Source of the DNA: Deferribacteres bacterium
GTDB taxonomy: Bacteria; Nitrospirota; Thermodesulfovibrionia; UBA6902
Assembly (NCBI GenBank): GCA_013152795.1
Contig: JAADFS010000028.1
Location: 1-62,543, forward strand
Direction: 5' to 3'
DNA length: 62,543 bases
The translations under genes were made by a program, and so were the position numbers. This document shows positions 7,006-24,861 of this stretch, one piece after another. The notes below the pieces were generated by a model. It saw only the letters and a list, made by a program, of their open reading frames with translations, was not told where the DNA came from and made no database searches. Position 1 is the stretch's first letter; every line of letters starts with the position of its first letter.

Positions 7006-8178
7006 TCAGGAGGTGTCGGCCTTCCGTTCGTGGAGGCTTTCTGAGACACTCCACTGTATGGGCAGGGAGAACCTGAAGACGGTTCCTTCGTCTTCGGATG
7101 TCGTGAAGCTGACCTCTCCGCCGAGGATCTGCTCTCCGAAGAGCTTCATGGAATATGTTCCGATTCCCCTGCCTGCTCCCTCTTTCGTGGAGAAGTTTCG
7201 TTGAAAGATCCTCAGGGCTGCGTCTTCCGGAATCACCTGTCTGTTCCAGACGTGAAACGTAAGGAGATTGCCGTCTTGTTCCAGCCACACCCTCACCGTG
7301 CCGTTTTCTTCCGTGGCCTCGAGGGCGTTTATGATCATGTTGCAGAGGACACGCAACAGCAGGGACATGTCCGTGTTCAGGGAGATCACCGGATAGGAGG
7401 GAGAGAACTGCAGGGTCTTCTTTTGTGCTACTGGATGGCTGATGAAGGAGGTGCGGAGCTCTTCCATTATCCGCTCCGTCGAGATCCTGTGTATGAGAGG
7501 ATGATAGGTGTATCTTTCAGTCTGGGACAGGCTCCTCTGTATCTCCACCTCTTTTTGCAGCCGCAGTGCCGACTGGTGTATCATCTTAACGAGGTCCGAC
7601 TGGCCGTTGTCGGCCCTGAGCATCTCGCTTGCACCCACCAGCGCACACAACATGTTGTTTATGTCGTGAAAGAACGTCCTCTCAAGTGCGGCCCGCTGCT
7701 GCTGTATGCTGATATCCTGAAGGAAGAGGAGGAGGAACCTGTTGCCGGAGATATCCAGGGGATGCGCCCGGACAAGAAGCGCGATGTCGACGTGCCTGCC
7801 TCCCCGGACAGCCGTCAGTGCACAGATCCTTTCGGCGGGTTTGTCATGCCCGAGTGCCGCAACAGTTGCTATCGCCGCTCCGCAGGTGGAACAGAACTTG
7901 GTGGTGCCGCAGCCTGCCGGTTCGTCGTCTGCATGGATACACTGCAGCACCTCTCCTATCCGCAGTCCAAGGACTCCGGATGGATCGTTGAACCCGATCA
8001 TCCTCAGGAAAGAGTCGTTCATCGCAATGATCTGACGGTGCTCGTCGAGGATGACTATCAGTCCGCTGATCGAGTGGAGCAGCCCGGACATTACGGCGTT
8101 CTTGTTGACTATCTCGATCTCCTTGACGAGATCCTCGTCTTCCGTACGCTCGGCCGGAGCAAAGTAGGAGTCCATCAT
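7006..8178 (-). CDS. PAS-domain sensor histidine kinase (no cognate response regulator in window)
   Basis: H-box FFHDINNML. N/G boxes NALEAT and GRGIGTYSMKLF. PAS-like N-terminus carries CGTTKFCSTC. Confidence 0.85.
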   Translation of the reverse strand: MMDSYFAPAERTEDEDLVKEIEIVNKNAVMSGLLHSISGLIVILDEHRQIIAMNDSFLRMIGFNDPSGVLGLRIGEVLQCIHADDEPAGCGTTKFCSTCGAAIATVAALGHDKPAERICALTAVRGGRHVDIALLVRAHPLDISGNRFLLLFLQDISIQQQRAALERTFFHDINNMLCALVGASEMLRADNGQSDLVKMIHQSALRLQKEVEIQRSLSQTERYTYHPLIHRISTERIMEELRTSFISHPVAQKKTLQFSPSYPVISLNTDMSLLLRVLCNMIINALEATEENGTVRVWLEQDGNLLTFHVWNRQVIPEDAALRIFQRNFSTKEGAGRGIGTYSMKLFGEQILGGEVSFTTSEDEGTVFRFSLPIQWSVSESLHERKADTS

Positions 8179-8589
8179 TCATACCCTGACTGTGTCATGC
8201 CTGTTTCAGTTGCAGAGGCTTTCGGGTGGGATCCTGTGCTGCACGGGTTGTCCCGCGCTCGGCCGGCAGACGATACCGCCGGCAGTGCCTTTTTCATCCC
8301 CCCTCGGCCCGACCATGGCCCGTTCGTGCAGTCTGTGTCATCTTCTGGATGACCCTGCGCCTATCCATACCATATCACAGAAGACTCCAAAAGACAAGCG
8401 TTTCATTCAGTTTCAGCAGCAGGTGCGTCGTTGCAGGGAGGATGGCTGCTCCGGCCGGCCGTTTGCAAATGAAGGCTCGGTGGGAGTATGATATGCCGAG
8501 AGGCCTTTCAAGCGGACCTTTGGAGCAGCCGTTTCCCGCTGCCGGGTCTCGATCGGAATATATTCAGCAACAGGCGGTGGTGCCGGTCA

Positions 8590-10913: not shown

Positions 10914-12308
10914 CTATTTCCCGACACAGAACCGGCTGAATATCCGGTTGAGGATATCCTCGGTCGTGGTTTCACCTGCTATCTCTCCAAGCCTGTCGAG
11001 CGCGTCTCTGAGTTCAAAGGCGGTTATTTCGTATGGCAGCCCCTCCACTATGGCGCGGGATGCCCTTGAAATTGCCTCTGCTGCCCCGTCAAGGGCGAGC
11101 TTGTGCCTGAGGTTTGTTATCATCAGACCGTCTGAGGACGAGCCGCTCCTGAAGACCAGGCCCTCTATCTCCCTCTTCAGGGAGTCCATTCCCTGTCCGG
11201 TCCTGGCGGATATCCTGACGATCGGAAGCCCCTCGGGAATGAGGCCCTCGTCGACCGAGCCGGGGAGGTCAGCCTTGTTGAGGACGATGATGCTCTTTCT
11301 GGTGCGTATCTTGTCGATCACGGTGAAGTCTTCATCCTTCAACGGGAGGCTCATGTCGAAGACCGCCAGCACCAGGTCCGCACCGTCGATCGCCCTGAGG
11401 CTTCTCCTGACCCCTTCACTCTCGGCCAGGTCGTGGGTCTCCCTGATGCCTGCCGTATCCATTATCCTCAGCGGCAACCCGTTTATGTTCAGATACTCCT
11501 CTATGACGTCCCTTGTAGTGCCGGGACTCTCCGTTACGATCGCCCGTTCCCTCTCAACGAGGGCGTTCAGGAGGGATGACTTTCCGACATTCGGTCTTCC
11601 GACGATCGCCACCGATAAGCCTTCACGAAAGAACCTTGCCTCTTCGTATGTTGAAGACAACTCACGGAGCCGCCCTGCAAGGGTGTCGGCGCTCCTGCTG
11701 AGCTCCTCTCTTGTATGCAGGTCCAGCTCTTCTTCAGGAAAGTCTATATATGCCTCGATATGGGCGCATATCTCCACGAGGGTCGTCCTTGCGGACGCTA
11801 TCTTTTCGGAGAGCGCGCCGGAGAGCTGTTCCATGGCAAGCTTTCTGGCCCTGTCGGTCTTTGCCCGTATCAGGTCGATGGTCGCTTCTGCCTGGGAGAG
11901 GTCTATCCTCCCGTTCATGAAAGCCCTGAACGTGAACTCACCCGGTCCTGCTATTCGCGCCCCTTCTCTTACCGCGAGTTCGAGGACCCTTCTGAGGGGA
12001 ATCATTCCGCCGTGGCAGTTGATCTCCACAACGTCTTCTTTCGTATATGAGTGGGGAGCCTTCATGACCGACAGCAGCACCTCGTCTATGACGGTGCCGT
12101 CCCTCGGATCAGTGATATGACCGTAGTGCATTGTGTGGGAGCGGAATTCCGTGGGAGTGCCCTTGCGGTGCGGGCTGAACATCATGGAAGCAATACCGAT
12201 TGCATCCTTGCCGCTCAGCCTGACTATGCCTATCCCGCCTTCTCCTGAAGGGGTGGATATGGCGACTATGGTATCTTCGAGGTTCATGGGCATGAAGGGG
12301 TCAGACAT
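10914..12308 (-). CDS. mnmE: tRNA modification GTPase MnmE
   Basis: G-domain GRPNVGKSSLLNAL, DTAGIRE, NKADL. Diagnostic C-terminus FCVGK. ORF N-terminus beyond 12308 is a read-through of tRNA-His. ATG 12293 or 12287 are also possible starts. Confidence 0.9.
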   Translation of the reverse strand: MSDPFMPMNLEDTIVAISTPSGEGGIGIVRLSGKDAIGIASMMFSPHRKGTPTEFRSHTMHYGHITDPRDGTVIDEVLLSVMKAPHSYTKEDVVEINCHGGMIPLRRVLELAVREGARIAGPGEFTFRAFMNGRIDLSQAEATIDLIRAKTDRARKLAMEQLSGALSEKIASARTTLVEICAHIEAYIDFPEEELDLHTREELSRSADTLAGRLRELSSTYEEARFFREGLSVAIVGRPNVGKSSLLNALVERERAIVTESPGTTRDVIEEYLNINGLPLRIMDTAGIRETHDLAESEGVRRSLRAIDGADLVLAVFDMSLPLKDEDFTVIDKIRTRKSIIVLNKADLPGSVDEGLIPEGLPIVRISARTGQGMDSLKREIEGLVFRSGSSSDGLMITNLRHKLALDGAAEAISRASRAIVEGLPYEITAFELRDALDRLGEIAGETTTEDILNRIFSRFCVGK

Positions 12309-12342
12309 GCATGCGGATTTTTCCGGACGGACAGGATAACGA

Positions 12343-12419
12343 TGGGGTGAGCGATGGGACTCGAACCCACAACCACTGGAGCCACAGTCCAGTGCTCTAA
12401 CCATTGAGCTACGCTCACC
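12343..12419 (-). tRNA. tRNA-His (GTG anticodon)
   Basis: Reverse complement GGTGAGCGTAGCTCAATGGTTAGAGCACTGGACTGTGGCTCCAGTGGTTGTGGGTTCGAGTCCCATCGCTCACCCCA folds as a cloverleaf. Has the extra G-1, loop CTGTGGC and an encoded CCA. Confidence 0.9.
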
Positions 12420-12479
12420 ATTGTAACTATCGTCGTATACTTATTTTATCAGAAACAGCCCCTGTTATGCCATCTGTTC

Positions 12480-12526
12480 TGGCGCGCCTGGGAGGATTCG
12501 AACCCCCGACCCACTGATTAGAAGTC
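12480..12526 (-). pseudogene. 3' fragment of tRNA-Arg (TCT anticodon); prophage attachment-site remnant
   Basis: Reverse complement ..GACTTCTAATCAGTGGGTCGGGGGTTCGAATCCTCCCAGGCGCGCCA contains the anticodon loop, 3' anticodon stem, T-arm, acceptor 3' strand and CCA. It closely resembles E. coli argU. No D-arm or 5' acceptor strand is present; sequence beyond 12526 is integrase-proximal phage DNA. Confidence 0.8.
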
Positions 12527-12557
12527 CTGCGTCCAACATCAATAAAAACATTTGAAA

Positions 12558-13634
12558 TCAACCGGTTATTTCATTTTTCGTGTAGTCATTGTTGACTACA
12601 CTGTTCGGTTTTAAATTCAATCCTGCATTTTCAAGTGCATTTTTTTTATTCTCTAACGCCACATGGGTATAAAATTCCGTTGTTGCAATCTGAGCATGGC
12701 CGAGGATTTCCTGTATTGTGCGCAGGTTGATATCCTTTGCCAGCAGGTGAGTTGCCAGGCTATGGCGGAGCAGGTGCGGATGGATGTGTTTATTAATCCC
12801 TGCTTTTTTCTTTGCCCTCTGTATTGCCCTTCTTATGTCCCTGATCGGCCTTGCACCGTTGACCGGTGAAGGGAAGACCCATTCTGAGCCGGTCGACTTG
12901 AGCAGGTCCTTCAATTCATCGTGCAGCCAATCCGACAAGGGCAGAACATTGGTTTTGTCCCCCTTCCGTCTGACCATTATGGCCCTGGTCTCCCAGTCGA
13001 TGTCTGTTCGTCTCAACATTCTTGCCTCGCTGAACCGAAGGCCGAGGTTGAACATGACAAGGAACATAACACGGTACACCGGGGAATCAGCGGCCGCGAT
13101 GAAGCGGACAGCTTCCTCAAATGTAAGCACCTGTGGAATAGGTCTTTTATATGGCAATTTTTCAATCTTCAATACCTCGGCGGGCCTCAGGTTCATGTTT
13201 TTGTCAGCCCATTTCAGGAAGGCTGCAAAGTAATCGAGCTCTTTGTTGATTGACCTGTTCCCTGCATTTTTCCCGCGGAAATCTTCTTTTCTCTGTTTCT
13301 GGTATAGCTGGAGCAACCTGTTTGTAATGTCATGGATCCGCATGGTTCCGAAGAACGGCACCAGATACCTCTCAAAACATTGCTTCTTGTCCACGAGGGT
13401 TTTCTTTGCCTGGTGCAGACGGACATACTCGAGGTATGCCGGGACCATTGCCTTGATAGGATCATTCAGGGCAACAAGCGGAGATGCTCCGCTCTTTTTC
13501 CGCATCTCTGCCTCAATTTCCCTTGCCTCATTTTCGGTTGTCCCTTCCGGAAGAGTAATACGCCGCCTCTTCCCCTTCCTGCCGTGGGGATAATAATCTA
13601 TGACGTATTTGCCGTTTCGGATACGGATAGACAT
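12558..13634 (-). CDS. phage integrase, tyrosine recombinase
   Basis: GLRFSEARML (Arg), HPHLLRHSLATHLL (HxxR), LGHAQIATTEFYTHV (His/Tyr). Adjacent to the tRNA-Arg fragment. Confidence 0.9.
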   Translation of the reverse strand: MSIRIRNGKYVIDYYPHGRKGKRRRITLPEGTTENEAREIEAEMRKKSGASPLVALNDPIKAMVPAYLEYVRLHQAKKTLVDKKQCFERYLVPFFGTMRIHDITNRLLQLYQKQRKEDFRGKNAGNRSINKELDYFAAFLKWADKNMNLRPAEVLKIEKLPYKRPIPQVLTFEEAVRFIAAADSPVYRVMFLVMFNLGLRFSEARMLRRTDIDWETRAIMVRRKGDKTNVLPLSDWLHDELKDLLKSTGSEWVFPSPVNGARPIRDIRRAIQRAKKKAGINKHIHPHLLRHSLATHLLAKDINLRTIQEILGHAQIATTEFYTHVALENKKNALENAGLNLKPNSVVNNDYTKNEITG

Positions 13635-13678
13635 TACTCAAACCGACACTGGAACCAGCCAGGTAGGCACCTCCATCA

Positions 13679-14287
13679 CTATAATTTAGACAGCAAATCC
13701 TTCTTTTTTTCCTGGAACTCTTGTTCTGTCAAAATGCCTTGTTCTTTCAATTCAGCCAATTTTTTTATCTGCTCCGGGATATCAATATTAGAGTTGGCCT
13801 CTATGGGTGTTGAATGTTTCTTGCCGATATTTTCTTTGACATAATTAACAAACGCATGAACATTTCCCTCGCTTATCCATTTCATGGACACCTTGTTACC
13901 AGATGCAAATAGCGTAATTGTATGCCCCATGAATCCCTTGCTTATATCGATTGAAGATATATTTGAATAAGGAAAAACCTCTAAATCATAACCAAGCATT
14001 TTTTTAGCGTAAAAAACGACTTTCTCGTTAGTCGCCAGGAAGATGCCGCTCCTGATACTCTCTTTACCTAATATTTTTGTTTCATAAGTGCCGAGAACTG
14101 ATGCGATGATTTTTTCGTCCTTATTCAGGTGTTCCGATGAAAGCTGAATAAGTTTTTGATGCTTGGTAAGTTTCTCTGGTTTTTTGTCCGAGTTGGGAGT
14201 TTCAGCAGTCGTTTGAGCTTCCATAGCACTTTTCAGTTTCTCAGCCTTCCATTTCTCATATTCCTCTCTACTTTTCCACTGTGCCAT
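13679..14287 (-). CDS. bacterial PH-domain (YokE-like) plus C-terminal SHOCT-domain protein, lysogeny-side moron
   Basis: GIFLATNEKVVFYAKK..SSIDISKGFMGHTITLFASGNKVSM (bPH-like). KKLAELKEQGILTEQEFQEKKKDLL (SHOCT pattern). Confidence 0.55.
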   Translation of the reverse strand: MAQWKSREEYEKWKAEKLKSAMEAQTTAETPNSDKKPEKLTKHQKLIQLSSEHLNKDEKIIASVLGTYETKILGKESIRSGIFLATNEKVVFYAKKMLGYDLEVFPYSNISSIDISKGFMGHTITLFASGNKVSMKWISEGNVHAFVNYVKENIGKKHSTPIEANSNIDIPEQIKKLAELKEQGILTEQEFQEKKKDLLSKL

Positions 14288-14317
14288 GGGGTTGTCCTCC
14301 TTGCAACAAATGCTGAA

Positions 14318-14962
14318 CTAAACCTTCAAGGGCCTCCATCCCTTGATGACCTTGCCCATGATCTGATAGTGCCTGTTCGGCTTCAGGGTCGGATATTCAG
14401 GATTGTCGCTCACCAGGAACTTTTCCCCGTCTTTTTCCCTGTACCGCTTGATCATGGATTCGCCCCATTCATTGTTGACGATGACAATATCACCGCTCCG
14501 GATTTCTTCGTTCGGCCTGAAGATGACATAGTCCCCATCCCGGAACGTCGGGCTCATGCTGTCACCCTTCACAATGAGTGCATATGCTCCCTTGGGTACC
14601 TCCGGTATATTGATATAGTCAATTATGTCGCTTTCAGGGATGTGTTCAGGAAAACCGGCCGGCACCCTGCCGAGCACGGGGATGCTCTCTGTCAATGAGA
14701 AGGCCCCCGGGATTCCTGATTTCTGAAACATATCTCCTTCGCCGGTTTTTAACCAATGTTCGTCAATTCCATATTTGAGACATATTAACCTGACAATTTC
14801 TTCCGGGATTCTTGTTTTTCCAAGTCTGTAATCCGACAGCCGGTTTTTGTGAATTCCGAGATCTTCGGCCATTTTTTTAGTATTTAAATGAAATTTATCA
14901 ATAACCCTATCTATTCGCTCGCCTATAGATCCCCTTGGCGGTTTATTACGCTTTCTTGGCAT
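14318..14962 (-). CDS. CI/LexA-like repressor (XRE HTH plus S24 peptidase domain)
   Basis: N-terminal HTH KKMAEDLGIHKNRLSDYRLG. C-terminal GDSMSPTFRDGDYVIF..MIKRY Ser/Lys dyad. Confidence 0.85.
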   Translation of the reverse strand: MPRKRNKPPRGSIGERIDRVIDKFHLNTKKMAEDLGIHKNRLSDYRLGKTRIPEEIVRLICLKYGIDEHWLKTGEGDMFQKSGIPGAFSLTESIPVLGRVPAGFPEHIPESDIIDYINIPEVPKGAYALIVKGDSMSPTFRDGDYVIFRPNEEIRSGDIVIVNNEWGESMIKRYREKDGEKFLVSDNPEYPTLKPNRHYQIMGKVIKGWRPLKV

Positions 14963-14966
14963 TGCA

Positions 14967-14987
14967 ATAGACCGTAATATTGTCTAT
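14967..14987. promoter_or_regulatory. candidate operator palindrome ATAGAC-N9-GTCTAT just upstream of the repressor start
   Basis: Perfect 6-bp inverted arms. GTCTAT recurs at 15192-15197. Lies in the divergent immunity intergenic region. Confidence 0.4.
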
Positions 14988-15260
14988 ACTTATAACCATG
15001 ATGGCCCTGAATTCAGCAAACACAAAACCCTCCCTTGGTTGTAATTTCGGCGCCACCGAAATTATACCACAGGGTAGGGATTTTTTCACCCACCACCGCC
15101 CCCTCATCGTGGTGGGCAACTCCCCGGCATGCCGGTCTCTGCCTGCCAGACAGGGCCATCACCTTGACCGTCATGCCGGGGCCTTTTACCTGTCTATCCA
15201 TACAATGATTATATGCCCTTATCTCCATAAGGGCAATTATAAGTTGGCTCGGGGGTTATA

Positions 15261-15722
15261 ATGACTTCTTATGATGCTCTGAACAAGGCCATTGGGGGAA
15301 AAACGAGGGAGCATGCCAAGGCCCTCGGTCTCAGCACAGCCCTGCTGTATAAGTGGCAGGAGCCCTCAACGGATTGGACAGACTCAGGCTCCTACAACCC
15401 CCTCGACCGCATAGAGACGATCATAGAGACAGCGCTCAAACTTGGGCAAGGCAGAAATGATGCCTTTGCTCCTCTTCATTACCTCGCCCGCCGTTTCAAC
15501 CAGATTTTGATTCCTGCCCCCTCAAGTGCTACCTGCCTTAAAGAACTGCAGCAGGCGCTTATGAAGACAATAAAGGAGTTTTCAGACCTCGCGCGGGCCT
15601 CGGCCGCCGCCCTCGAGGACGGCAGGCTCGACCCACGTGAGGCAGAGCAGATAAAAAAGGAAGGCTGGGAGCTCATCGAGCAGGCCTCGGCCTTCGTAAA
15701 GTTAATCGAGGACTATCTATGA
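15261..15722 (+). CDS. phage regulatory protein, CII/CP76-like HTH
   Basis: N-terminal EHAKALGLSTALLYKWQEP HTH-like segment. First gene transcribed divergently from the repressor. Confidence 0.5.
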   Translation: MTSYDALNKAIGGKTREHAKALGLSTALLYKWQEPSTDWTDSGSYNPLDRIETIIETALKLGQGRNDAFAPLHYLARRFNQILIPAPSSATCLKELQQALMKTIKEFSDLARASAAALEDGRLDPREAEQIKKEGWELIEQASAFVKLIEDYL

Positions 15723-16160: not shown

Positions 16161-16648
16161 CAAAAGTGATCGTCCTGATCGCAATTGGATGGATTCTCGG
16201 GTATATGCATCATTTCATGGTGACAAGAGACATCCTTCAGGATTTCAGCAACAGGATCTTGTGGCTTGAGCAGGATATGAGCCTTGCAAACGCAGGGATA
16301 TCTCAGGTCTTCAAGGAAGTCATCACTCTCAATCAAAAATTCAATATCGGGAGTGATTTCAAGGTCACCGGCTATTCGAATGACCCCGGATCAATCAATG
16401 TCCCGCGCTGGCGTGACGGAAGGACTGCCACCGGAGTGAAGGCTACACCCGGGATCTGCGCGGCCGACTGGGATTTGATCCCGGTTGGAACTCTTGTCTG
16501 GATAGATGATTACGGCTGGTGTGAAATCCAGGACAGGGGCGGCAAGGTAAAGGGAAGGCATATCGATCTTTTCTTTGATGATGTGCTTGATGCAAAGAAT
16601 TGGGGTGTGAGAAAGACTGATATAGTCATTGCTGATCTGGAGGAGTAG
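16145..16648 (+). CDS. membrane-anchored 3D-domain (RlpA/MltA-like double-psi barrel) protein
   Basis: N-terminal TM helix VIVLIAIGWILGY. FKVTGYSNDPGS..TATGVKATPGICAADWDLIPVGT..IQDRGGKVKGRHIDLFF matches the 3D-domain pattern. Confidence 0.7.
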   Translation: MFDKLTKVIVLIAIGWILGYMHHFMVTRDILQDFSNRILWLEQDMSLANAGISQVFKEVITLNQKFNIGSDFKVTGYSNDPGSINVPRWRDGRTATGVKATPGICAADWDLIPVGTLVWIDDYGWCEIQDRGGKVKGRHIDLFFDDVLDAKNWGVRKTDIVIADLEE

Positions 16649-16664: not shown

Positions 16665-16745
16665 ATGCCGTGGGGATAGGGTTCCGGACCCGACAAGGTG
16701 AATGCCTCCACCTTCCCCACGGCATAACCAGAGGCGATTTGGCAA
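16665..16745 (+). ncRNA. structured leader element, copy 1 (see findings)
   Basis: 11-bp outer helix ATGCCGTGGGG/CCCCACGGCAT encloses a 45-nt core identical to 17543-17587. Conserved tail AACCAGAGGC. Confidence 0.5.
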
Positions 16746-16865
16746 GGAGATGCTTTATATCCTGCATATCAAGGATTTTGCTGGTGTAAAGGACATAGTT
16801 GCATACACATGTGTTCTTTCAACAATCAGTGGGCTCTACAGCACATTGCCCCAGGGAGTGAATTG

Positions 16866-17528
16866 ATGAGCACAACCCTTGAATCTGTTGCAGAGAAACA
16901 TACTGATCAGGATATATGTCCCCGCTACCCCGGCAACCCGACCAGGACAGACTTGATGTGCGCCACAAGGCATAAGAAGGCCGTAAGGGATCCGGAGAAG
17001 ATCCTTTATTCGAATTGTGCTGACTGCAATATCGGTAAAGAGGCAGCAATGAAGGATATCAAACCGATCAAATATACAGCCAAGCATACATCGACCGATA
17101 CACATCCCTGTTCGCAGTGTGGCAGGCCTACCCGGGGCAAGTTATGTGCCGGATGTTTGCTCCAGGGCAAGTCAGGCTCTTCCAGGGAGACAAAGGAGAC
17201 AGAAATGCAAAAACAAAAGATCTGCAAGGTTGAAGGATGCGGCAATCCTTTCAAAGCAAGAGGTTATTGTGACAAGCACTATAAAAATGCCGTTAAAACC
17301 GGTGAGATTAAGACTACACCCAGGAATAAAAAGAAGATCAATCCTCAACCGGAGAAGCAGGAAACGTGCAATGCAGAGAATATGACCGCCATGCTTGCCC
17401 AGCTTCTCTATTGCAGCCGGGTTCTCGATTCCGAAATCAACGCCGCCATGCTTCAGAACAGGATCGAGATCAAGAATATATCCGATGTAAGGTTCCGCCT
17501 TGGAGAGATAATGAGAGGGGCTCTATAG
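16866..17528 (+). CDS. Cys-rich (zinc-ribbon-like) hypothetical protein
   Basis: CSQCGRPTRGKLCAGC and CKVEGCGNPFKARGYCDKHY motifs. ATG 16866 preceded by GGGAG; ATG 16809 is an alternative start. Confidence 0.5.
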   Translation: MSTTLESVAEKHTDQDICPRYPGNPTRTDLMCATRHKKAVRDPEKILYSNCADCNIGKEAAMKDIKPIKYTAKHTSTDTHPCSQCGRPTRGKLCAGCLLQGKSGSSRETKETEMQKQKICKVEGCGNPFKARGYCDKHYKNAVKTGEIKTTPRNKKKINPQPEKQETCNAENMTAMLAQLLYCSRVLDSEINAAMLQNRIEIKNISDVRFRLGEIMRGAL

Positions 17529-17536
17529 TCCCATCG

Positions 17537-17623
17537 CCTGCAGGGATAGGGTTCCGGACCCGACAAGGTGAATGCCTCCACCTTCCCTGCAGGACAACCA
17601 GAGGCATATATGGAAAGGAGGCA
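17537..17623 (+). ncRNA. structured leader element, copy 2, immediately 5' of the recombinase/Cas12-like operon
   Basis: 9-bp outer helix CCTGCAGGG/CCCTGCAGG around the same 45-nt core. Loop TGCCTCC (17573-17579) is complementary to the SD GGAGGCA (17617-17623). Confidence 0.5.
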
Positions 17624-17627
17624 TTCC

Positions 17628-18236
17628 ATGACAGCAGAGAGGACATCAACAAGGACAAGGGCCGGAGAGAACTATCTCACCGAGCAGGAAGAGAAAAGGC
17701 TTTTCAGACACCTGAAGGGCCTGAAATCCCGCCAGGCAGAGCGTGACTATGTGCTCCTGAAGCTCTGCCGGCTGACAGGGCTCAGGAGGGCTGAGGCACT
17801 GGCCCTCAATGTGGGGGATGTGATCAACCAGAAGAGAATAATCATCGACGAACGGATCGCGCGCAAGGGGGCCGTGGGGGAAGTCGGCATCCCGGTGGAA
17901 CTGCAAAAAATCATCAAGCGGTTCCTCTGGCTTAAGCGCACCTGGCGCGAAAGCCTTGATGACGAGGCCCCTCTGTTCGTGAGCAAGAGGGGCAACAGGC
18001 TCTCTCTGAGGGCCTTCAACGACCTGATGGACAAGTGGTGCAGATCGGCGGGGATCCCGCGCTATACTCCGCACGCCCTACGTCACACAAAGGCGCACAG
18101 GATACTTGAGAAGTCGGACAACCCTCCAAAGGCCCTGGTATATGTCAACAATCAACTGAGGCACAAGTCCTACAACTCGACACTCGTATACACCCTCCCT
18201 ACAAAGGAAGAGAGGGAGAAGGTGGCAGGGCTGTAA
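17628..18236 (+). CDS. minimal tyrosine recombinase (catalytic domain only)
   Basis: GLRRAEALAL (Arg), HALRHTKAH (HxxR), LRHKSYNSTLVYT (His/Tyr). About 200 aa with no N-terminal SAM-like core-binding domain. ATG 17628 preceded by AAGGAGG. Confidence 0.8.
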   Translation: MTAERTSTRTRAGENYLTEQEEKRLFRHLKGLKSRQAERDYVLLKLCRLTGLRRAEALALNVGDVINQKRIIIDERIARKGAVGEVGIPVELQKIIKRFLWLKRTWRESLDDEAPLFVSKRGNRLSLRAFNDLMDKWCRSAGIPRYTPHALRHTKAHRILEKSDNPPKALVYVNNQLRHKSYNSTLVYTLPTKEEREKVAGL

Positions 18237-18237
18237 C

Positions 18238-19761
18238 ATGGCGAACCATTTCAACAAGGGAGTCGTGTTCGGAAAACTGGCGGGGCTTGAACGGAAGAAA
18301 TCCGAAGGGGGCAAACCCTACATCCAGATATACCTCGAATGCCCGAACGATCTCCACGGGGATGCAAAGGTTTACGGCCGGATGTGGGGAGAAGACAGGG
18401 TCAATGCCTTCATGGCCGGGCTGAACAGAGACGGCAAGCTCCTCATGGGGACCGGGCTCAGGCTTGAAGGATTTTTCAGCCAATACGACGCAGAGGACGG
18501 TCTCTACTGGGCCAATGCGGCACATCTCAAGGACAAGTTCATGAATGCCTACTTCTCGTCTCTGAGGCATGGCAGGAAACTTCACTTCCATGCCTTTGAC
18601 GGCAACCTCAGGTTTGAGCATGTCTTCACATCCGGGGGGATCCCGGCTGAGAAGATCTTCACCGACAATCCAAGGCAGAAACGTATCAGGATAACTCCTA
18701 TTTCCCGGGATATCTACCAGGACAGGCAGCGGGGCATTATCTCTCAGCGGGAGATGAAACGAAAGGCGCGCACCGAGGCGTTGATAACGCTTGCAGGCCT
18801 CCAGATGAGGTTCCGGACCATATTGCACCGGCCGGTGCCGGAGGGGAGCATCCTCAAGAAAGCCGTCATCAAGCGGATCAGGACCGGGAGGTACAACTAC
18901 AGGTGGACTCTCTCGCTGACCGTAGAGGTCCCGCCGGATGATTCGATGCCCGCAGGACAGGCACCCGCCGGCAAGACGGCAGGGCTCGACGTCGGTTACA
19001 GGATGATCGACGGCCGCCTGCGTGTTGGCTATCTGGCTGGAGATGCCGGACAGATGGAGATATACCTGCCCGGCCGGATAATGGAGCGGTTCATCCATGT
19101 GCAGGAGCTGCAACAGAAGAGCGACGCCCTGCTTGAGGAGATGAAGGCACGCCTGGTCGAGATGCTCCCCGAGGGGCTCCCAGCGGAGCTGAAAGCAAAC
19201 TGGCATATGGCAAGGCACGGAAGGCTCAGAAAGATTATCCGTTGGCTTGCGGATAACAGCCCTGAACATATAGCCCTCAGGGAACTGCGGAAATGGGAGC
19301 GGCAGGATGCAGCGATACAGAATGAGAAGGAGGGACTCAGGAGGCGTGCAATCAGGCAGAGGCAATGGTTCTACTACAACCTCGCGCACAGGCTGGCCGG
19401 AGAGTATGGGACCCTTGTGATCGAATCTCTCAAGCCCGGCGACCTGCAGAGGAAGACCCAGCTTGATGACGACCGGACACTGCCCCGGAGAGCGTCTTTC
19501 TATCGAGGTATCGCTGCCGTTGGTGCTTTGCTCGACATTATTCAGGATGTCGGACGCCGAAAGGGCATGACGGTCCACAAGGTTGATCCCGCATACACCA
19601 CGTTGACCTGCCATGTCTGTGGTCATGTGGTAGAACCCGTTGACAGGGCCAGCCTGCTCTGGTGCTGCGACGGCTGCGGATCCGAGTGGGACCAGGACTA
19701 TAACGCTGCGTATAACCTCTATATGAGTGGAAGGGAGAGCAAAGAGGCAAAAGTTGCATAA
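18238..19761 (+). CDS. TnpB/Cas12-like RuvC nuclease, putative compact type V CRISPR effector
   Basis: 507 aa. RuvC-I TAGLDVGY (D251), RuvC-II TLVIESL (E396), RuvC-III WDQDYNAAYNL (D486/D488). Zinc ribbon CHVCGH..CCDGCG. DPAYTTLTC linker as in TnpB. Followed 47 nt later by a CRISPR array. Confidence 0.8.
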   Translation: MANHFNKGVVFGKLAGLERKKSEGGKPYIQIYLECPNDLHGDAKVYGRMWGEDRVNAFMAGLNRDGKLLMGTGLRLEGFFSQYDAEDGLYWANAAHLKDKFMNAYFSSLRHGRKLHFHAFDGNLRFEHVFTSGGIPAEKIFTDNPRQKRIRITPISRDIYQDRQRGIISQREMKRKARTEALITLAGLQMRFRTILHRPVPEGSILKKAVIKRIRTGRYNYRWTLSLTVEVPPDDSMPAGQAPAGKTAGLDVGYRMIDGRLRVGYLAGDAGQMEIYLPGRIMERFIHVQELQQKSDALLEEMKARLVEMLPEGLPAELKANWHMARHGRLRKIIRWLADNSPEHIALRELRKWERQDAAIQNEKEGLRRRAIRQRQWFYYNLAHRLAGEYGTLVIESLKPGDLQRKTQLDDDRTLPRRASFYRGIAAVGALLDIIQDVGRRKGMTVHKVDPAYTTLTCHVCGHVVEPVDRASLLWCCDGCGSEWDQDYNAAYNLYMSGRESKEAKVA

Positions 19762-19808
19762 CCCCGGCTTTAATATGCTGAAAAGAAACAGGAAAAGAGA
19801 GGGGTGCA

Positions 19809-20111
19809 GTAGGAAAACTGGGTCCAGGTCAGGAAGCCTGGAACAGGGACAATCCCTGAGGGGATAGGAAGGCGGGCCTGTAGGAAAACTGGGTCCAGGT
19901 CAGGAAGCCTGGAACTCCGGATGGTGATAAATTTTTCCATGTTTAAGTAGGAAAACTGGGTCCAGGTCAGGAAGCCTGGAACTGGGGATCAACGGGTTTC
20001 TTGCCGCCGCTTTCTTGGTAGGAAAACTGGGTCCAGGTCAGGAAGCCTGGAACTGGCGTTCAGGATAGCAAGTCCGTCCGCGATGCTGGGTAGGAAAACT
20101 GGGTCCGGAAC
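19809..20111 (+). CRISPR. CRISPR array: 4 identical 36-nt repeats, 1 truncated terminal repeat, 4 spacers
   Basis: Repeat GTAGGAAAACTGGGTCCAGGTCAGGAAGCCTGGAAC at 19809, 19880, 19947 and 20018. Spacers of 35, 31, 35 and 36 nt, all different. Terminal unit 20090-20111 is GTAGGAAAACTGGGTCC+GGAAC. Confidence 0.9.
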
Positions 20112-20198
20112 GACCAAGTTCACCGGTGAGCGGTAGCGAGTTCGGTGCAGCGCATTGTTGGGCCTGATGGCCTTAATCTAAATACAGGAGGTTACGCT

Positions 20199-20387
20199 AT
20201 GAAACTGAGGAACATTCTTATCATTCAGGCTATTATCGTTCTGTTCATTGGTATAGGCTGGGTGAAAAATCTTATTAAACTCGCACATTGTGATTTTGAG
20301 GCCCCATATCAGGCTGAGGTTATCTATGCCGCTGGCTTGATTCCACCTGTGGGGGCTATAACCGGCTGGCTTGACCTTGGGAAGTGA
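20199..20387 (+). CDS. small membrane protein
   Basis: ATG 20199 preceded by CAGGAGG. Two hydrophobic helices (ILIIQAIIVLFIGIGWV, IYAAGLIPPVGAITGWL). Confidence 0.45.
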   Translation: MKLRNILIIQAIIVLFIGIGWVKNLIKLAHCDFEAPYQAEVIYAAGLIPPVGAITGWLDLGK

Positions 20388-20395
20388 GGTGAATC

Positions 20396-20737
20396 ATGAA
20401 AAACAAAGGCTTTACTTTCATCGAACTTCTTATCATCCTCGCAATGGCCGGGATTGTTGCGACCATGTTCTTTGGCTTGGTCGTAAATAATCGTGGGGCA
20501 ACCGAGCGCAGGGCCTTCGCCGGGGCAGTGAAATTTGCAACCGGCAACAATATTACAGTCAAGCGCATTTCATGTGCCGGAGATTCAAACCGTGACGGAT
20601 ATGGCACTTGTGCCATTTCCACGGAAGATAATCAGCGTATAATGCTCCAGTGCCCGACAGATTATTTTGACGTTGAATGGTTCGGAGCAAGCGGCTGTAA
20701 AGAGGTTTTCCAGGATTTCAATTTTACGATTAGATGA
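20396..20737 (+). CDS. type IV pilin-like / pseudopilin protein with prepilin N-terminal methylation motif
   Basis: MKNKGFTFIELLIILAMAGIVA is the canonical G|FTxxE prepilin signal. Four Cys in the C-terminal part. Confidence 0.7.
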   Translation: MKNKGFTFIELLIILAMAGIVATMFFGLVVNNRGATERRAFAGAVKFATGNNITVKRISCAGDSNRDGYGTCAISTEDNQRIMLQCPTDYFDVEWFGASGCKEVFQDFNFTIR

Positions 20738-21107: not shown

Positions 21108-21448
21108 CACATGAGGAGTTCAACGAGGTCCTCGAAGCACGATTCGAGAAAAGCCGCATGGTACTTGCAAAAAAGGCCGGAGAATACGCCCGGGGCGACC
21201 GGCTCAGCAACTTCAAGAAGGCTGCCGGTGCACTCCAGTGCACTCCGCACAAGGCCCTTGTCGGCATGTGGATGAAGCACATCATCAGCATCATCGACAT
21301 GGTCGACGACATGGAGAAAGGTAAGGACACATCTTACATTATATGGGATGAAAAGATCGGCGATGCAATCAATTACCTGATACTGCTTGATGGATTGGTC
21401 TGTGAGGGCCTTGGCGTCAAACCAACTCAAGAGGTTGAGAATGTTTGA
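21104..21448 (+). CDS. DUF1599-like (nucleotide-modification-associated domain 1) protein
   Basis: GDRLSNFKKAA..ALVGMWMKHIISIIDMV resembles the DUF1599 pattern as recalled. ATGA overlap with the upstream stop. Confidence 0.45.
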   Translation: MTHEEFNEVLEARFEKSRMVLAKKAGEYARGDRLSNFKKAAGALQCTPHKALVGMWMKHIISIIDMVDDMEKGKDTSYIIWDEKIGDAINYLILLDGLVCEGLGVKPTQEVENV

Positions 21449-22349
21449 TCGCATTGAAAAAGGCCTCTGGTGGGACAGGGCTTGGACTCTTGTGGAAGGA
21501 TGCACCAAGGTAAGCCCTGCCTGCCGGAACTGCTGGGCCGAGAGAGATGCATGGCGGAAGTCTCATCAGAAAAATGAAAAAATCAGCAGGCGGTATGAGG
21601 ATCTCCTGGATGAAAACGGACACTGGACCGGCAGGATCCGCTTGATGGAGAATTTCGACATTCCTTGCCTGATCAAGAAGATCAGAAGACCTACGGTCTT
21701 TGCAATCTGGAATGACCTGTTTCATGAGAATGTGCCCAGACTATACATTGAACACGCTCTCATTGTAATGGCGCTTCTTAAGAAACATGTCTTTCTGGTC
21801 CTGACTAAAAGAATCGACAGAGCAAAAAAGATTTTGGATACCCCTGCGCCGAATATCTGGTTCGGAGTCACAGCGGAGAATCAGGAACAGGCAAACAGGC
21901 GGATACCAACACTCATGCAGATACGAGCAGCAAAGCGGTTCGTTTCCATTGAGCCTATGCTGGGGCCCGTAATTTTAGAGAAATGGCTTGCGGACAGAAA
22001 ACTGGATTGGGTCATCCTCGGCGGTGAGACAGGCAAAAATGCCCGGCCCATGCATCCCGGTTGGGCGCGCAAGGTCCGGGACGACTGCCAGGCGGCGGGG
22101 GTGCCGTTTTTCTTTAAGCAATGGGGGGAGTGGTTGCCTGATCGCCAACTCTTCAATCACCCTCAAGGCCCGGGGGGGAAACTGATGCTTACCTTAGAGC
22201 ATAATTCACCCAAGGCGATTGCTACACGGCAAAAGCTACAAATCACAACAATTTGCCATCATGGATTTACTACCACCTTTGCCCATGTCGGCAAGAAGGC
22301 TGCTGGCGCGTTGCTTGATGGCAGGGAATGGCGCGAGGTGCCGGAGTGA
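21441..22349 (+). CDS. phage Gp37/Gp68 family protein (DUF5131)
   Basis: N-terminal WDRAWTLVEGCTKVSPACRNCWAE matches the family signature W.p..GC...S.gC..CyA. ATG 21441 overlaps the upstream stop. Confidence 0.65.
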   Translation: MFDRIEKGLWWDRAWTLVEGCTKVSPACRNCWAERDAWRKSHQKNEKISRRYEDLLDENGHWTGRIRLMENFDIPCLIKKIRRPTVFAIWNDLFHENVPRLYIEHALIVMALLKKHVFLVLTKRIDRAKKILDTPAPNIWFGVTAENQEQANRRIPTLMQIRAAKRFVSIEPMLGPVILEKWLADRKLDWVILGGETGKNARPMHPGWARKVRDDCQAAGVPFFFKQWGEWLPDRQLFNHPQGPGGKLMLTLEHNSPKAIATRQKLQITTICHHGFTTTFAHVGKKAAGALLDGREWREVPE

Positions 22350-22351
22350 AA

Positions 22352-22534
22352 ATGATTGAAGAGAAACTTGCCGAGGCTGAAAGAAAAGCTTGGGATGCCC
22401 TCGGCAGATACAAGTTCTTGATGTTCGGATATTGGGCGGCTATATGGGTGCATATGAATTCAATGTCACCTGCCAAAAGGAGCAATCCTTTCAATCGTCT
22501 GGTGCAGATGGCAAGGGAGGCAAAGAGACAATGA
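22352..22534 (+). CDS. hypothetical small protein
   Basis: ATG 22352 after GGAG. 60 aa. Ends in an ATGA overlap with the next gene. Confidence 0.35.
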   Translation: MIEEKLAEAERKAWDALGRYKFLMFGYWAAIWVHMNSMSPAKRSNPFNRLVQMAREAKRQ

Positions 22535-23103
22535 CTGAGCGTCCTATAATTATGACAACTTCTATGGTGCGGGGCATTCTTTTCGGGCGAAAAACGCAGA
22601 CAAGGAGACTGGCAAGGCGGAGAACATGCCCCTATGGAGCCCCTGGCGACCGGCTGTGGGTAAGAGAGACGTGGGCCCACCACAAGGCATGCAACCGTGC
22701 CGAGCATGATCACGATACAGGGTGTCTTTTGTACAAGGCAGACCATATTGAAAATGTCTGGAACGATAAAACTCGCTGGATACATATATGGTATGAGAAA
22801 AAGCCCTCTATTCATATGCCTCGGTGGGCATCGAGGATACTTCTTGAAATAGTCAGCGTCAGGGCAGAAAGAATTCAGGATATAAGTATTGAGGATATTC
22901 ACGCAGAGGGTATTGATAGATGGGAAGACTTTGAAGGTGGAAAACATCTATCAGTTTATCAGGCTCAAGGGGCCTTTAAAAATTTTTGGAATTCACTCTA
23001 CGCCAAGAGTGGGTACGGATGGGATGCAAATCCAGTGGTATGGAGGATAGAGTTCAGAGTATTACACGACTTGTGCCGTGCAGGTCTGCCGCTTATGAAA
23101 TGA
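22531..23103 (+). CDS. ASCH-like domain protein
   Basis: MTERPIIMTTSMVRGILFGRKTQTRR..GDRLWVRETW is the pattern common to phage ASCH-type proteins. Confidence 0.45.
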   Translation: MTERPIIMTTSMVRGILFGRKTQTRRLARRRTCPYGAPGDRLWVRETWAHHKACNRAEHDHDTGCLLYKADHIENVWNDKTRWIHIWYEKKPSIHMPRWASRILLEIVSVRAERIQDISIEDIHAEGIDRWEDFEGGKHLSVYQAQGAFKNFWNSLYAKSGYGWDANPVVWRIEFRVLHDLCRAGLPLMK

Positions 23104-23136
23104 AAGGATGGATCTTTATGTGGCTGGAAACGGGCC

Positions 23137-24861
23137 GTGCTTATCGCACGGACTGTTATGGACATAAGGACAGATCGTGCGCAGACGTCCATCCTCGACG
23201 CCGTAATTGCACGTCCAGGCATCGGGAACGTCGGAGACGCTCTCGTTTGGGATCAATTCGAAATATTTGCAATCAGGATAGGTATTCATAAAAAAAGTAT
23301 AGCAAAAAGGAGAAGTATTATCAAGGAACTCATAGTCGACAACTTTGCAGGAGGTGGCGGGGCTTCGGTAGGCATAGAGGCTGCGCTCGGGCGACCGGTG
23401 GACATTGCGGTCAATCATGACCCGGTTGCCATTGCCATGCACAAGGCAAACCATCCGCGCACGCGGCATCTGAACGAAAATATCTGGGACGTTGATCCGG
23501 TCGATATTTGCGCCGGCCGGCCTGTCGGTCTCGCATGGTTCAGCCCGGACTGTACTCACTTCAGCAAGGCCAAGGGCGGACGGCCGGTCAATAAGAAGAT
23601 ACGGGGCCTCGCCTGGGTGGTTCTCAAGTGGGCCGCTACCGTGCGGCCGCGGATAATCATACTCGAGAATGTCGAGGAGTTCGTCACCTGGGGACCACTC
23701 GTAAAGAAAGAGGACGGCAACCACTACCCCTGCCCGAAGCGCAAGGGTCAGACCTTCAAGGTCTTCGTGAACGCCCTCAAAAAGCACGGTTATGACGTCA
23801 ACTGGCGGGAGCTTCGGGCCTGTGACTACGGGGCCCCGACCATAAGAAAACGTCTCTTCCTGATAGCCCGCTGCGACGGGCAGGCCATAACCTGGCCTGA
23901 GCCCACGCACGGGGACCCGAAAAGCAAGGCGGTCAGGATAGGACGGTTGAAGCCCTGGCGGACGGCCGCAGAGTGCATTGACTGGTCTATCCCATGCCCC
24001 TCGATATTTATGACCAGGGAAGAGGCCAGGGCATACGGCGTCAAGCGGCCACTGGCCGAGGCGACCATGAGGCGCATAGCAAGGGGCATCAAGCGGTATG
24101 TCCTGGATGCGGCGGAGCCATTTATCGTGCCAATAGCTCATTATAATGGCCGAGATACCATTCATGGCATAAATGATCCATTCAGGACCGTTACCGCCAA
24201 CCCCAGGGGAGGGTCATTCAGCTTGGTGATGCCTTCTCTCATGCACCTGACCCATCATGGAAAGCAGACCCTTGTCTCTGCTTTCCTCGCCAAGCATTAT
24301 GGTGGGGTCGTTGGTACCAGTATGGACAGCCCCATAAGCACGGTAACGAGCAAAGATCACCATTCGCTCGTCACCGCCCACATCATAAAGCTATATGGCA
24401 CGAATACCGGTCATGCTTGTAATGAACCCCTTCATACGGTCACGGCTGGGGGTTTTCATCTCGGCGAGGTATGGGCCTTCCTCATGAAGTATTACGGCAC
24501 GGACCAGGACCCTCAACTCCGCAAGCCCTTGCATACGGTCACTACAAAGGACCGTTTCGGTCTCGTTACGGTCCATGGGGAGGAATACCGGATAGTGGAC
24601 ATAGGCATGAGGATGCTTACACCGAGGGAACTTTTCCGGGCGCAGGGGTTCCCGGACAGCTACATCATTGACATAGGGCACGACCCAAGGGAACTCTTCC
24701 GGGACAAGCCCCTCACGAAGACCCAGCAGGTTGCCCTGTGCGGCAACTCTGTATGCCCCGACTTGGCGAAAATCCTCGTCGAGTCGAATTATGAAGCAGG
24801 CAATGGAATCCTTTCAGAAAAATGCGATACAACAGGGATGTCTACACTCCAACCCACCTGA
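23137..24861 (+). CDS. DNA (cytosine-5)-methyltransferase with expanded target-recognition region
   Basis: Motif I DNFAGGGGAS, motif IV FSPDCTHFSKA, motif VI IILENV, motif X CGNSVCP. Four tandem ~32-aa modules between motifs VIII and IX. Exact start uncertain. Confidence 0.88.
   Translation: MLIARTVMDIRTDRAQTSILDAVIARPGIGNVGDALVWDQFEIFAIRIGIHKKSIAKRRSIIKELIVDNFAGGGGASVGIEAALGRPVDIAVNHDPVAIAMHKANHPRTRHLNENIWDVDPVDICAGRPVGLAWFSPDCTHFSKAKGGRPVNKKIRGLAWVVLKWAATVRPRIIILENVEEFVTWGPLVKKEDGNHYPCPKRKGQTFKVFVNALKKHGYDVNWRELRACDYGAPTIRKRLFLIARCDGQAITWPEPTHGDPKSKAVRIGRLKPWRTAAECIDWSIPCPSIFMTREEARAYGVKRPLAEATMRRIARGIKRYVLDAAEPFIVPIAHYNGRDTIHGINDPFRTVTANPRGGSFSLVMPSLMHLTHHGKQTLVSAFLAKHYGGVVGTSMDSPISTVTSKDHHSLVTAHIIKLYGTNTGHACNEPLHTVTAGGFHLGEVWAFLMKYYGTDQDPQLRKPLHTVTTKDRFGLVTVHGEEYRIVDIGMRMLTPRELFRAQGFPDSYIIDIGHDPRELFRDKPLTKTQQVALCGNSVCPDLAKILVESNYEAGNGILSEKCDTTGMSTLQPT

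Follow-up and report, generated by a model that had tools for sequence, protein, structure and literature searches.

Cas12m (formerly V-U1 or c2c4) is the effector of the type V-M CRISPR systems, in which arrays are short and other cas genes are lacking, and which are enriched on plasmids, with some instances in prophages (PMC10691335; PMC11656645). In the biochemically characterised members of the family, the RuvC triad is of the form H-D-D or N-D-D, and DNA is bound but not cleaved (PMC10442227; bioRxiv 10.64898/2026.03.26.714355; PMC11013384). The N-terminal region of Cas12m2 is made up of WED strand 1, REC1 helix 1 and the inserted REC2 (Omura et al. 2023, PMC10442227). REC2 contacts the heteroduplex distal to the protospacer-adjacent motif (PAM) and, together with REC1, forms an arginine pocket for the displaced strand; the same study proposed that the REC2 insertion is necessary for Cas12 action in CRISPR immunity. 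Here, we analysed the entire 62.5-kb contig JAADFS010000028.1 (hereafter the window), labelled at NCBI as belonging to a Deferribacteres metagenome-assembled genome, and found that it codes for a 507-aa Cas12m. The locus is probably a type V-M system with a mini-array carried as prophage cargo, wherein an orphan module has replaced WED strand 1, REC1 helix 1 and REC2 of the effector, rather than being added to them. Both the family and the kind of setting are known; the replaced N-terminus is the one unusual, and so far unique, feature.

The cas12m gene is a continuous open reading frame (ORF), which a preliminary description of the window had correctly reported to run without an internal stop. 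Sequence homology, together with the CRISPR array downstream of the gene, identifies its product as Cas12m. First, the PADLOC model Cas12u1 covers residues 84–498 (E = 2.6e-58), and the best-matching PDB sequences are those of Cas12m, namely 23vw (E = 5e-44, residues 86–496) and 23vu (E = 7e-23). Second, AlphaFold was run both on the single sequence, which yielded a model too poor to use, and on an alignment of 23 homologues trimmed so that nothing was forced onto residues 1–83. The alignment-based model reached a mean predicted local distance difference test (pLDDT) score of 81, with 85–96 over most of the core, and its top Foldseek match was Cas12m2 8HHL (E = 6e-22, TMq 0.69); this structure and GoCas12m 8PM4 ranked well above Cas12f and TnpB. 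Third, the sole Pfam match of the 507-aa protein was the Cas12f1-like TNB zinc ribbon, whereas the NCBIfam model guided_TnpB (1e-20) remained under its cut-off and TnpB models scored far below theirs. The preliminary description had rightly recognised a compact, RNA-guided RuvC and zinc-ribbon effector. It knew of no described Cas12 or TnpB family with such an N-terminus, but the family is not undescribed, the best PADLOC, PDB and Foldseek matches being to Cas12m. An exhaustive phmmer search with the full-length query against 1.84 billion representative proteins recovered 3870 relatives, the nearest of which (P0006) shares 47% identity over the core. All 17 nearly invariant positions of the Cas12m family are kept in the query, which at 507 aa compares with about 560–600 aa in its relatives, the closest of which have 560–588 aa.

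The split RuvC motifs I–III, with the zinc-ribbon TNB placed before RuvC-III, are arranged as in Cas12m. The triad of the query is D-E-D, the common state among its near relatives, as indicated by the column counts in an alignment of 149 Cas12m relatives (Table 1). The first two of these residues, Asp251 of GLDVG and Glu396 of VIESL, lie where the preliminary description had placed them, while the third was off by one: it had named D486 and D488, but the DQD string occupies residues 485–487, and the catalytic aspartate before NAA is D487. The zinc cysteines that it listed (Cys458, Cys461, Cys476, Cys477 and Cys480) are all present, with C458, C461 and C477 being invariant across the alignment of relatives.

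Absent from that earlier account is the CRISPR array, which begins 48 nt past the cas12m stop codon. Its repeat, GTAGGAAAACTGGGTCCAGGTCAGGAAGCCTGGAAC, is present in four identical copies starting at positions 19809, 19880, 19947 and 20018, with four spacers of 35, 31, 35 and 36 nt, and the array ends in a degenerate terminal repeat at 20090–20111, AGGTCAGGAAGCCT, which corresponds to the full repeat minus 14 internal nt. This deletion takes out the hairpin and leaves both ends. The full repeat folds into a 7-bp 3' hairpin and a 3-bp pseudoknot with an AC tail. Arrays also lie directly downstream of homologues in three other loci (L002, L009 and L010), and the repeats of all four share a common geometry: a 3–4-nt 5' arm, two unpaired bases, a 5–7-bp hairpin whose loop starts with the complement of the 5' arm, and an AC tail at the 3' end. 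Which bases pair differs from locus to locus. When the window repeat was shuffled 20000 times, no more than 22 of the shuffles attained this geometry; base pairs were counted by script, as MAFFT left the four repeats out of structural register. The geometry of the window repeat matches the two-helix scaffold of the PmCas12m CRISPR RNA (crRNA) (bioRxiv 10.64898/2026.03.26.714355). Adjacent arrays, about which the preliminary description had asked, are also present in loci L012 and L014. In these two, which represent a subgroup of short Cas12m-like proteins devoid of REC2, the arrays begin at or overlap the stop codon (L012, 2165–2276; L014, 3176–3359), and their repeats end, in a window-like manner, in a hairpin plus AAC. 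Scans for promoters and terminators stayed at background level.

The window array is a same-orientation neighbour of the effector gene, with ~36-nt repeats and a 3' stem-loop handle, as in Cas12m loci. Further, Pfam or PADLOC scans of the neighbouring ORFs from 13.7 to 24.9 kb showed no cas gene among them, cas1, cas2 and cas4 included. Around the locus are a tRNA-His, an integrase, CI- and CII-like regulators, a primase and a Mu-like portal, which places it in the early part of a prophage that has integrated at the tRNA-His. The combination of an array, a prophage location and no nearby cas1/cas2 is typical of V-M.

The N-terminus is where the query departs from the family. The best 150 of the 3870 phmmer relatives all align only from query residue ~67–88 onwards, a point corresponding to residue ~140–160 of the homologues, or ~70–90 in the shorter subgroup. 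Upstream of it, the N-termini of the homologues are mutually related: all are of the form RKRDWP..VYKFW..P....WNxLVE, and most continue into a long coiled coil. Against profile hidden Markov models (HMMs) built from 21 short and 97 long canonical N-termini, residues 1–85 of the query scored −2.5 and −3.5 bits, respectively, no better than 2000 shuffles, whereas the other 135 of 136 family N-termini scored at least 26 bits, leaving the query as the sole outlier. Likewise, hhalign gave the segment a probability of 0.1% against the canonical profile, compared to 97.3% for a control in which a short-type N-terminus was matched to the long-type profile. The canonical N-terminal REC-lobe segment of Cas12m, with WED strand 1, REC1 helix 1 and usually the REC2 coiled coil with its conserved arginines for binding the non-target strand, is thus missing from the query. 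By the same comparison (0.1% against a control of 97%), the segment is not simply the canonical split-WED/REC N-terminus, a case that the preliminary description had itself raised against its interpretation; its further question of whether homologues keep the N-terminal extension is answered in the negative, as they have canonical N-termini instead. It had also proposed an OB module fused to a full TnpB-size core. Of this, the abnormal N-terminus stands, but not the addition, as the segment replaces ~75–150 canonical residues; being a replacement, it leaves the protein shorter than its relatives.

The REC2-less short subgroup (for example, P0016, P0038 and P0064; 490–560 aa) resembles the query in length and in having no REC2 coiled coil. 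However, it keeps the RKRDWP..VYKFW..WNxLVE pattern, and its core is ~30% identical to that of the query, as against up to 47% for the long type. This subgroup bears on the alternative that the segment represents canonical WED strand 1 and REC1 helices that have diverged beyond recognition, with no swap having taken place. The 85 aa of the segment are near the 72–79 aa of the subgroup, the helices that AlphaFold predicts at residues 52–60 and 77–86, ahead of the REC1 helix at 91–111, could mimic a three-helix REC1, and A-K-x-x-x-R-x-W (residues 43–50) resembles the helix-1 motif, being the best, albeit not significant, placement by hhalign. Nevertheless, the core is 47% identical to the nearest relative and yet the N-terminus remains at shuffle level, the 135 other N-termini reach their scores even at 22–30% core identity, and it is to the long type, with REC2, that the nearest relatives belong. 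The alternative is rejected at the sequence level by the profile scores, the 136-member outlier test and hhalign, and we regard it as quite unlikely overall.

Residues 1–85 are real coding sequence. Their in-frame codon-usage score is 0.345 bit/codon, as compared to 0.29 ± 0.10 bit/codon for confidently called genes of the prophage taken in 85-codon windows; out of frame, all windows stay below 0.345. The guanine–cytosine (GC) content by codon position is 0.59/0.35/0.71 in the segment and 0.59/0.42/0.71 in the rest of cas12m, GC is raised evenly across cas12m and the small recombinase gene upstream of it, and a purine-rich, Shine–Dalgarno-like stretch precedes the cas12m ATG. The N-terminal string quoted in the preliminary description is present at residues 6–88. 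That a sequencing frameshift might have joined two genes, a caveat of its own, is excluded because no remnant of a canonical N-terminus was found in any frame between 16600 and 18700; with the frame also being continuous, its conclusion that this is one gene rather than two holds. An assembly chimera joining unrelated sequences near nt 18470–18493 is very unlikely. The contig does come from a metagenome-assembled genome and the junction is unique; however, the reading frame carries on through the join, neither codon usage nor GC at the three codon positions changes across it, no repeat that could mislead an assembler is present there, and both flanks lie in one coherent prophage. A 475-aa antisense open frame opposite cas12m (18199–19626, minus strand) most likely results from the high GC of cas12m at the third positions of its codons and is not a gene.

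The preliminary description had read the OB-fold pattern of bacterial SSB in the N-terminus. Neither residues 1–110 nor 1–91 alone matched any model of Pfam (including PF00436, the SSB family), NCBIfam or PHROGs, and phmmer against the PDB with the N-terminal segment gave nothing relevant to SSB. Smith–Waterman alignments with four SSB OB domains (1000 shuffles each) yielded z = 3.0 for the E. coli protein and z = 0.4–1.5 for the other three; the E. coli alignment is out of register, setting query residues 5–34 on SSB 55–81 rather than in the register formerly suggested. An SSB HMM scored the segment below the mean of its 2000 shuffles, and hhalign against the SSB profile gave a probability of 0.4%. 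This profile consists of four sequences, of which the E. coli one was verified, a protein search with E. coli SSB having returned only near-identical enterobacterial SSBs. SSB homology was rejected, with the HMM libraries, the PDB search, the Smith–Waterman alignments with shuffles, the custom HMM and hhalign all negative, and the pattern is not above chance. What the segment shares with the SSB OB domain is a loose visual pattern of hydrophobic and glycine residues and predicted early β-strands; it has no significant similarity, no confident five-stranded barrel and no tetramerisation or acidic-tail features, and it belongs to an effector instead of standing alone as a protein.

The predicted structure of the segment is less clear-cut. 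Both AlphaFold runs place strands at residues 13–21, 27–34 and 44–50, but beyond residue 50 they disagree, one with strands at 55–62 and 68–70 and the other, made with the alignment, with helices at 52–60 and 77–86. The pLDDT over the segment ranges from 25 to 73, with 62–73 in the first hairpin, ~50–60 from there to residue 60 and less than 50 over residues 64–88. Of a five-stranded OB barrel, we therefore see three reproducible strands and a possible helix, and the prediction fits the beginning of an OB fold as well as a small sheet followed by REC1-like helices, proving neither. Two points favour the reading of the preliminary description, by which residues 1–~90 would form a genuine SSB-type OB fold that binds single strands as a functional addition: the three strands common to both runs are followed in one of them by the helix at 52–60, in the order seen at the start of an OB fold, and, since the replaced segment includes the displaced-strand pocket of Cas12m2, a binder of single-stranded DNA would suit functionally. 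Set against this are the lack of any match in the domain libraries, with their SSB/OB families, and the PDB, the alignments that are at chance or out of register, the inconsistent prediction of strands 4–5, the pLDDT below 50 over residues 64–88, and the fact that the segment is a replacement and not an addition; we consider this reading improbable.

No other relative of the segment emerged. A word-index search with the N-terminus through 5.8 billion proteins found nothing, and because relatives below roughly 45–50% identity would escape it, the status of 'orphan' is provisional. A tblastn search with the segment against phage and plasmid records likewise gave nothing beyond chance. A paralogue elsewhere in the window was sought and none was found, and an internal duplication of WED strands was rejected as the source of the segment. 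Its sole PDB match, to the DivIVA N-terminal domain (E = 0.03; residues 35–84, nt 18340–18489; string PNDxH...ED.VN.F), is probably due to chance.

The nearest relative, P0006, offers a glimpse of how the hybrid might have originated. Its N-terminus is canonical and complete, and upstream of it in its contig is a 3D-domain gene with 57% identity to positions 16361–16642 of the window; between this gene and cas12m, the P0006 contig has an SMC-like ATPase, and the window a Cys-rich ORF and the small recombinase. In tblastx comparisons of the two loci, similarity starts exactly at nt 18493, while a weak FFS motif at residues 79–81 suggests that the true boundary may be nearer residue 75–79. Most likely, the segment was fused in frame to a Cas12m core by recombination or deletion in this lineage, beside the small recombinase gene. 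Closer relatives of the whole protein and of the repeat were found in none of the scanned viral, genome and metagenome contigs, and hence the fusion event cannot be dated; an exact-protein look-up in an assembly index also returned no match.

The same data allow for a doubtful, but serious, possibility, namely that the gene is a non-working product of rearrangement, in which an unrelated 5' gene part was fused to a 5'-truncated cas12m, now a decaying remnant that has not acquired stops yet. Consistent with this, the hybrid is a singleton, its breakpoint is inside the gene and beside a recombinase, the loosely syntenic locus of P0006 with its related 3D-domain gene carries a full-length cas12m, the lost segment is functionally important in Cas12m2, and the spacers found no target. 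On the other hand, the frame is open throughout with a start codon that shows coupling to the gene upstream, the triad and all nearly invariant residues have been preserved, the array has four repeats of identical sequence, and the homogeneous composition over the recombinase, the N-terminus and the core speaks against an import in the very recent past; if the event was recent, none of these counter-points is decisive.

Returning to the reading that we favour, a V-M prophage locus with a replaced N-terminus, several observations weigh against it. No second copy of the N-terminus or of the junction is present in any collection searched, and, the hybrid being a singleton, conservation cannot vouch for its function. 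The low AlphaFold confidence over residues 1–88 leaves room for an OB-like fold. Finally, the spacers have no match in the window, in IMG/VR (exact 20-mer), or in GenBank phages and PLSDB plasmids (blastn). We put the chances of the hybrid being active at roughly even, leaning slightly to function. The open frame, the retained nearly invariant residues and the identical repeats speak for activity, the singleton architecture and the lack of spacer targets against it. In addition, some N-terminal variation is tolerated in the family, as seen in the REC2-less subgroup with its arrays (L012 and L014), and PmCas12m with residues 2–13 deleted keeps its activity, though neither case has a bearing on the loss of REC1 helix 1.

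If the system operates like the characterised Cas12m systems, the array would be transcribed in the same direction as the cas12m gene, and the effector would bind the pseudoknotted handle derived from the repeat, with the crRNA directing it to double-stranded DNA that is flanked by a PAM and belongs to competing phages or plasmids. The target would then be blocked by tight binding that acts as a roadblock to transcription or replication; given the intact D-E-D triad, cleavage might also be possible. Since the replaced part contacts the heteroduplex and the displaced strand in Cas12m2, the hybrid may bind DNA differently or less well. That the orphan module is a functional, β-rich and possibly OB-like nucleic-acid binder, taking over the role of REC2 and the arginine pocket on the displaced strand or the PAM-distal duplex, seems rather unlikely; more remote still is a variant in which the module would tie the effector to the small tyrosine recombinase, with which it is translationally linked.

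Comparisons with described systems underscore both the affinities and the departures of the locus. With Cas12m (MmCas12m, TtCas12m2 8HHL, GoCas12m 8PM4, PmCas12m and 23vw), it shares sequence and fold over residues ~86–497, the downstream same-orientation array of 36-nt repeats, the hairpin/pseudoknot handle, the lack of nearby cas1/cas2 and the location in a mobile element; as in that family, no requirement for a tracrRNA (trans-activating CRISPR RNA) type of component is expected. It differs in that its first ~80 residues are unrelated to WED strand 1, REC1 helix 1 and the REC2 coiled coil, in being 50–100 aa shorter, and in its D-E-D triad as against the H-D-D or N-D-D of characterised members. 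TnpB (IS200/IS605 and IS607; ISDra2 TnpB, 8H1J) likewise has a RuvC and zinc-ribbon core, a comparable size and no REC2, but where TnpB has an omega RNA that overlaps the 3' end of its gene, the query comes with a CRISPR array; the query has neither TnpA nor transposon ends, and its similarity to Cas12m is far stronger. Cas-phi (Cas12j) and the viral Cas12m-like locus L002 resemble the window in being virus-borne single-effector systems with a short array and no adaptation genes, whose role is presumed to lie in the competition between mobile elements. However, Cas-phi is another effector family with a weak match to the query (E about 0.1–0.2), and the window represents a temperate prophage rather than a jumbo phage. 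L002 itself is a 202-kb, jumbo-phage-sized IMG/VR viral contig, in which a distant Cas12m-like gene is followed by an 11-repeat array (7442–8193).

Cas12m is being developed for base and epigenome editing as a compact platform that binds DNA without cutting it, and size is the limiting factor. Here, a natural 507-aa version has an unrelated module of ~80 residues in place of the REC2 coiled coil and the first REC1 elements. If the hybrid is active, part of the REC lobe would be exchangeable, which would be useful in engineering, and the proposal of Omura et al. on the REC2 insertion would be affected; the REC2-less subgroup with arrays likewise bears on the view that REC2 is required. If the orphan module is functional, it would represent a new solution for the REC lobe in a compact Cas12m with an intact D-E-D triad. 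If inactive, the locus would be a snapshot of a prophage-borne CRISPR system broken by rearrangement. In either case, the claim of an SSB fusion does not hold up.

The coordinates of the features are collected in Table 1. The left end of the prophage (12343–15722) also holds a bPH/SHOCT protein, with the host gene mnmE (10914–12404) just outside it, and a 3D-domain protein is among the further prophage genes. The stop codon of the small recombinase lies 1 nt before the cas12m ATG. The pairing of the two genes is not conserved in 15 homologue loci, and the recombinase has no relatives in IMG/VR. GC is 0.55–0.63 over both genes (17550–19650) versus 0.44–0.52 on either side, which suggests that they were acquired as one block.

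Table 1. Features of the cas12m locus and the surrounding prophage, in positions of the window; residue counts refer to the alignment of Cas12m relatives
Feature	Position	Strand	Evidence or remarks
tRNA-His	12343-12418		Rfam (sole Rfam match)
Full-length integrase	12558-13634	-	
CI-like S24 repressor	14318-14962	-	
CII-like regulator, divergent	15261-15722	+	
Small tyrosine recombinase, catalytic domain only	17568..18236	+	Pfam Phage_integrase 1.2e-21
cas12m gene, 507 aa, type V-M CRISPR effector	18238..19761	+	Continuous ORF, profile and structure matches
Non-canonical N-terminal segment, residues 1-85, Gly-rich	18238..18492	+	No homologue; fuzzy homology boundary ~67-88
Cas12m-homologous core: last REC1 helix (GLYW motif, W91), WED, RuvC, TNB	18493..19728	+	tblastx, AlphaFold, alignment
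RuvC-I Asp251 (GLDVG)	18988..18990	+	Column D in 123/149; N 13, E 7, H 3
RuvC-II Glu396 (VIESL)	19423..19425	+	Column E in 124/149
TNB zinc ribbon, C458-x2-C461 ... C477-x2-C480	19609..19677	+	Pfam Cas12f1-like_TNB 5.7e-16, residues 431-494
RuvC-III Asp487 (WDQDYNAA)	19696..19698	+	Column D in 145/149
Purine-rich short leader, stop codon to first repeat	19762..19808	+	Sequence
CRISPR array, 4 identical 36-nt repeats + 1 degenerate	19809..20111	+	0 chance matches expected

Upstream of the recombinase, a 63-nt direct repeat (16673–16735 and 17543–17605; 92% identical, 870 nt apart) flanks the Cys-rich ORF of 239 aa (16809–17528), its second copy overlapping the GTG start of the recombinase as called. 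The repeats have no match in Rfam and could be a pair of sites for recombination, or else a regulatory or RNA element that was duplicated. Directly past the array (20145–20737) are genes for a small membrane protein of 80 aa and for a protein of 113 aa that carries a prepilin-type N-terminal methylation motif, which are odd cargo for the early region of a prophage. Further downstream (21387–24861), a DUF5131-like protein matches the PADLOC candidate-defence models PDC-M41B/PDC-M30B (6e-53), and its gene is close to that of a C5 cytosine methyltransferase (23137–24861); a second methylase, of the N6/N4 type, is encoded at 106–2004.

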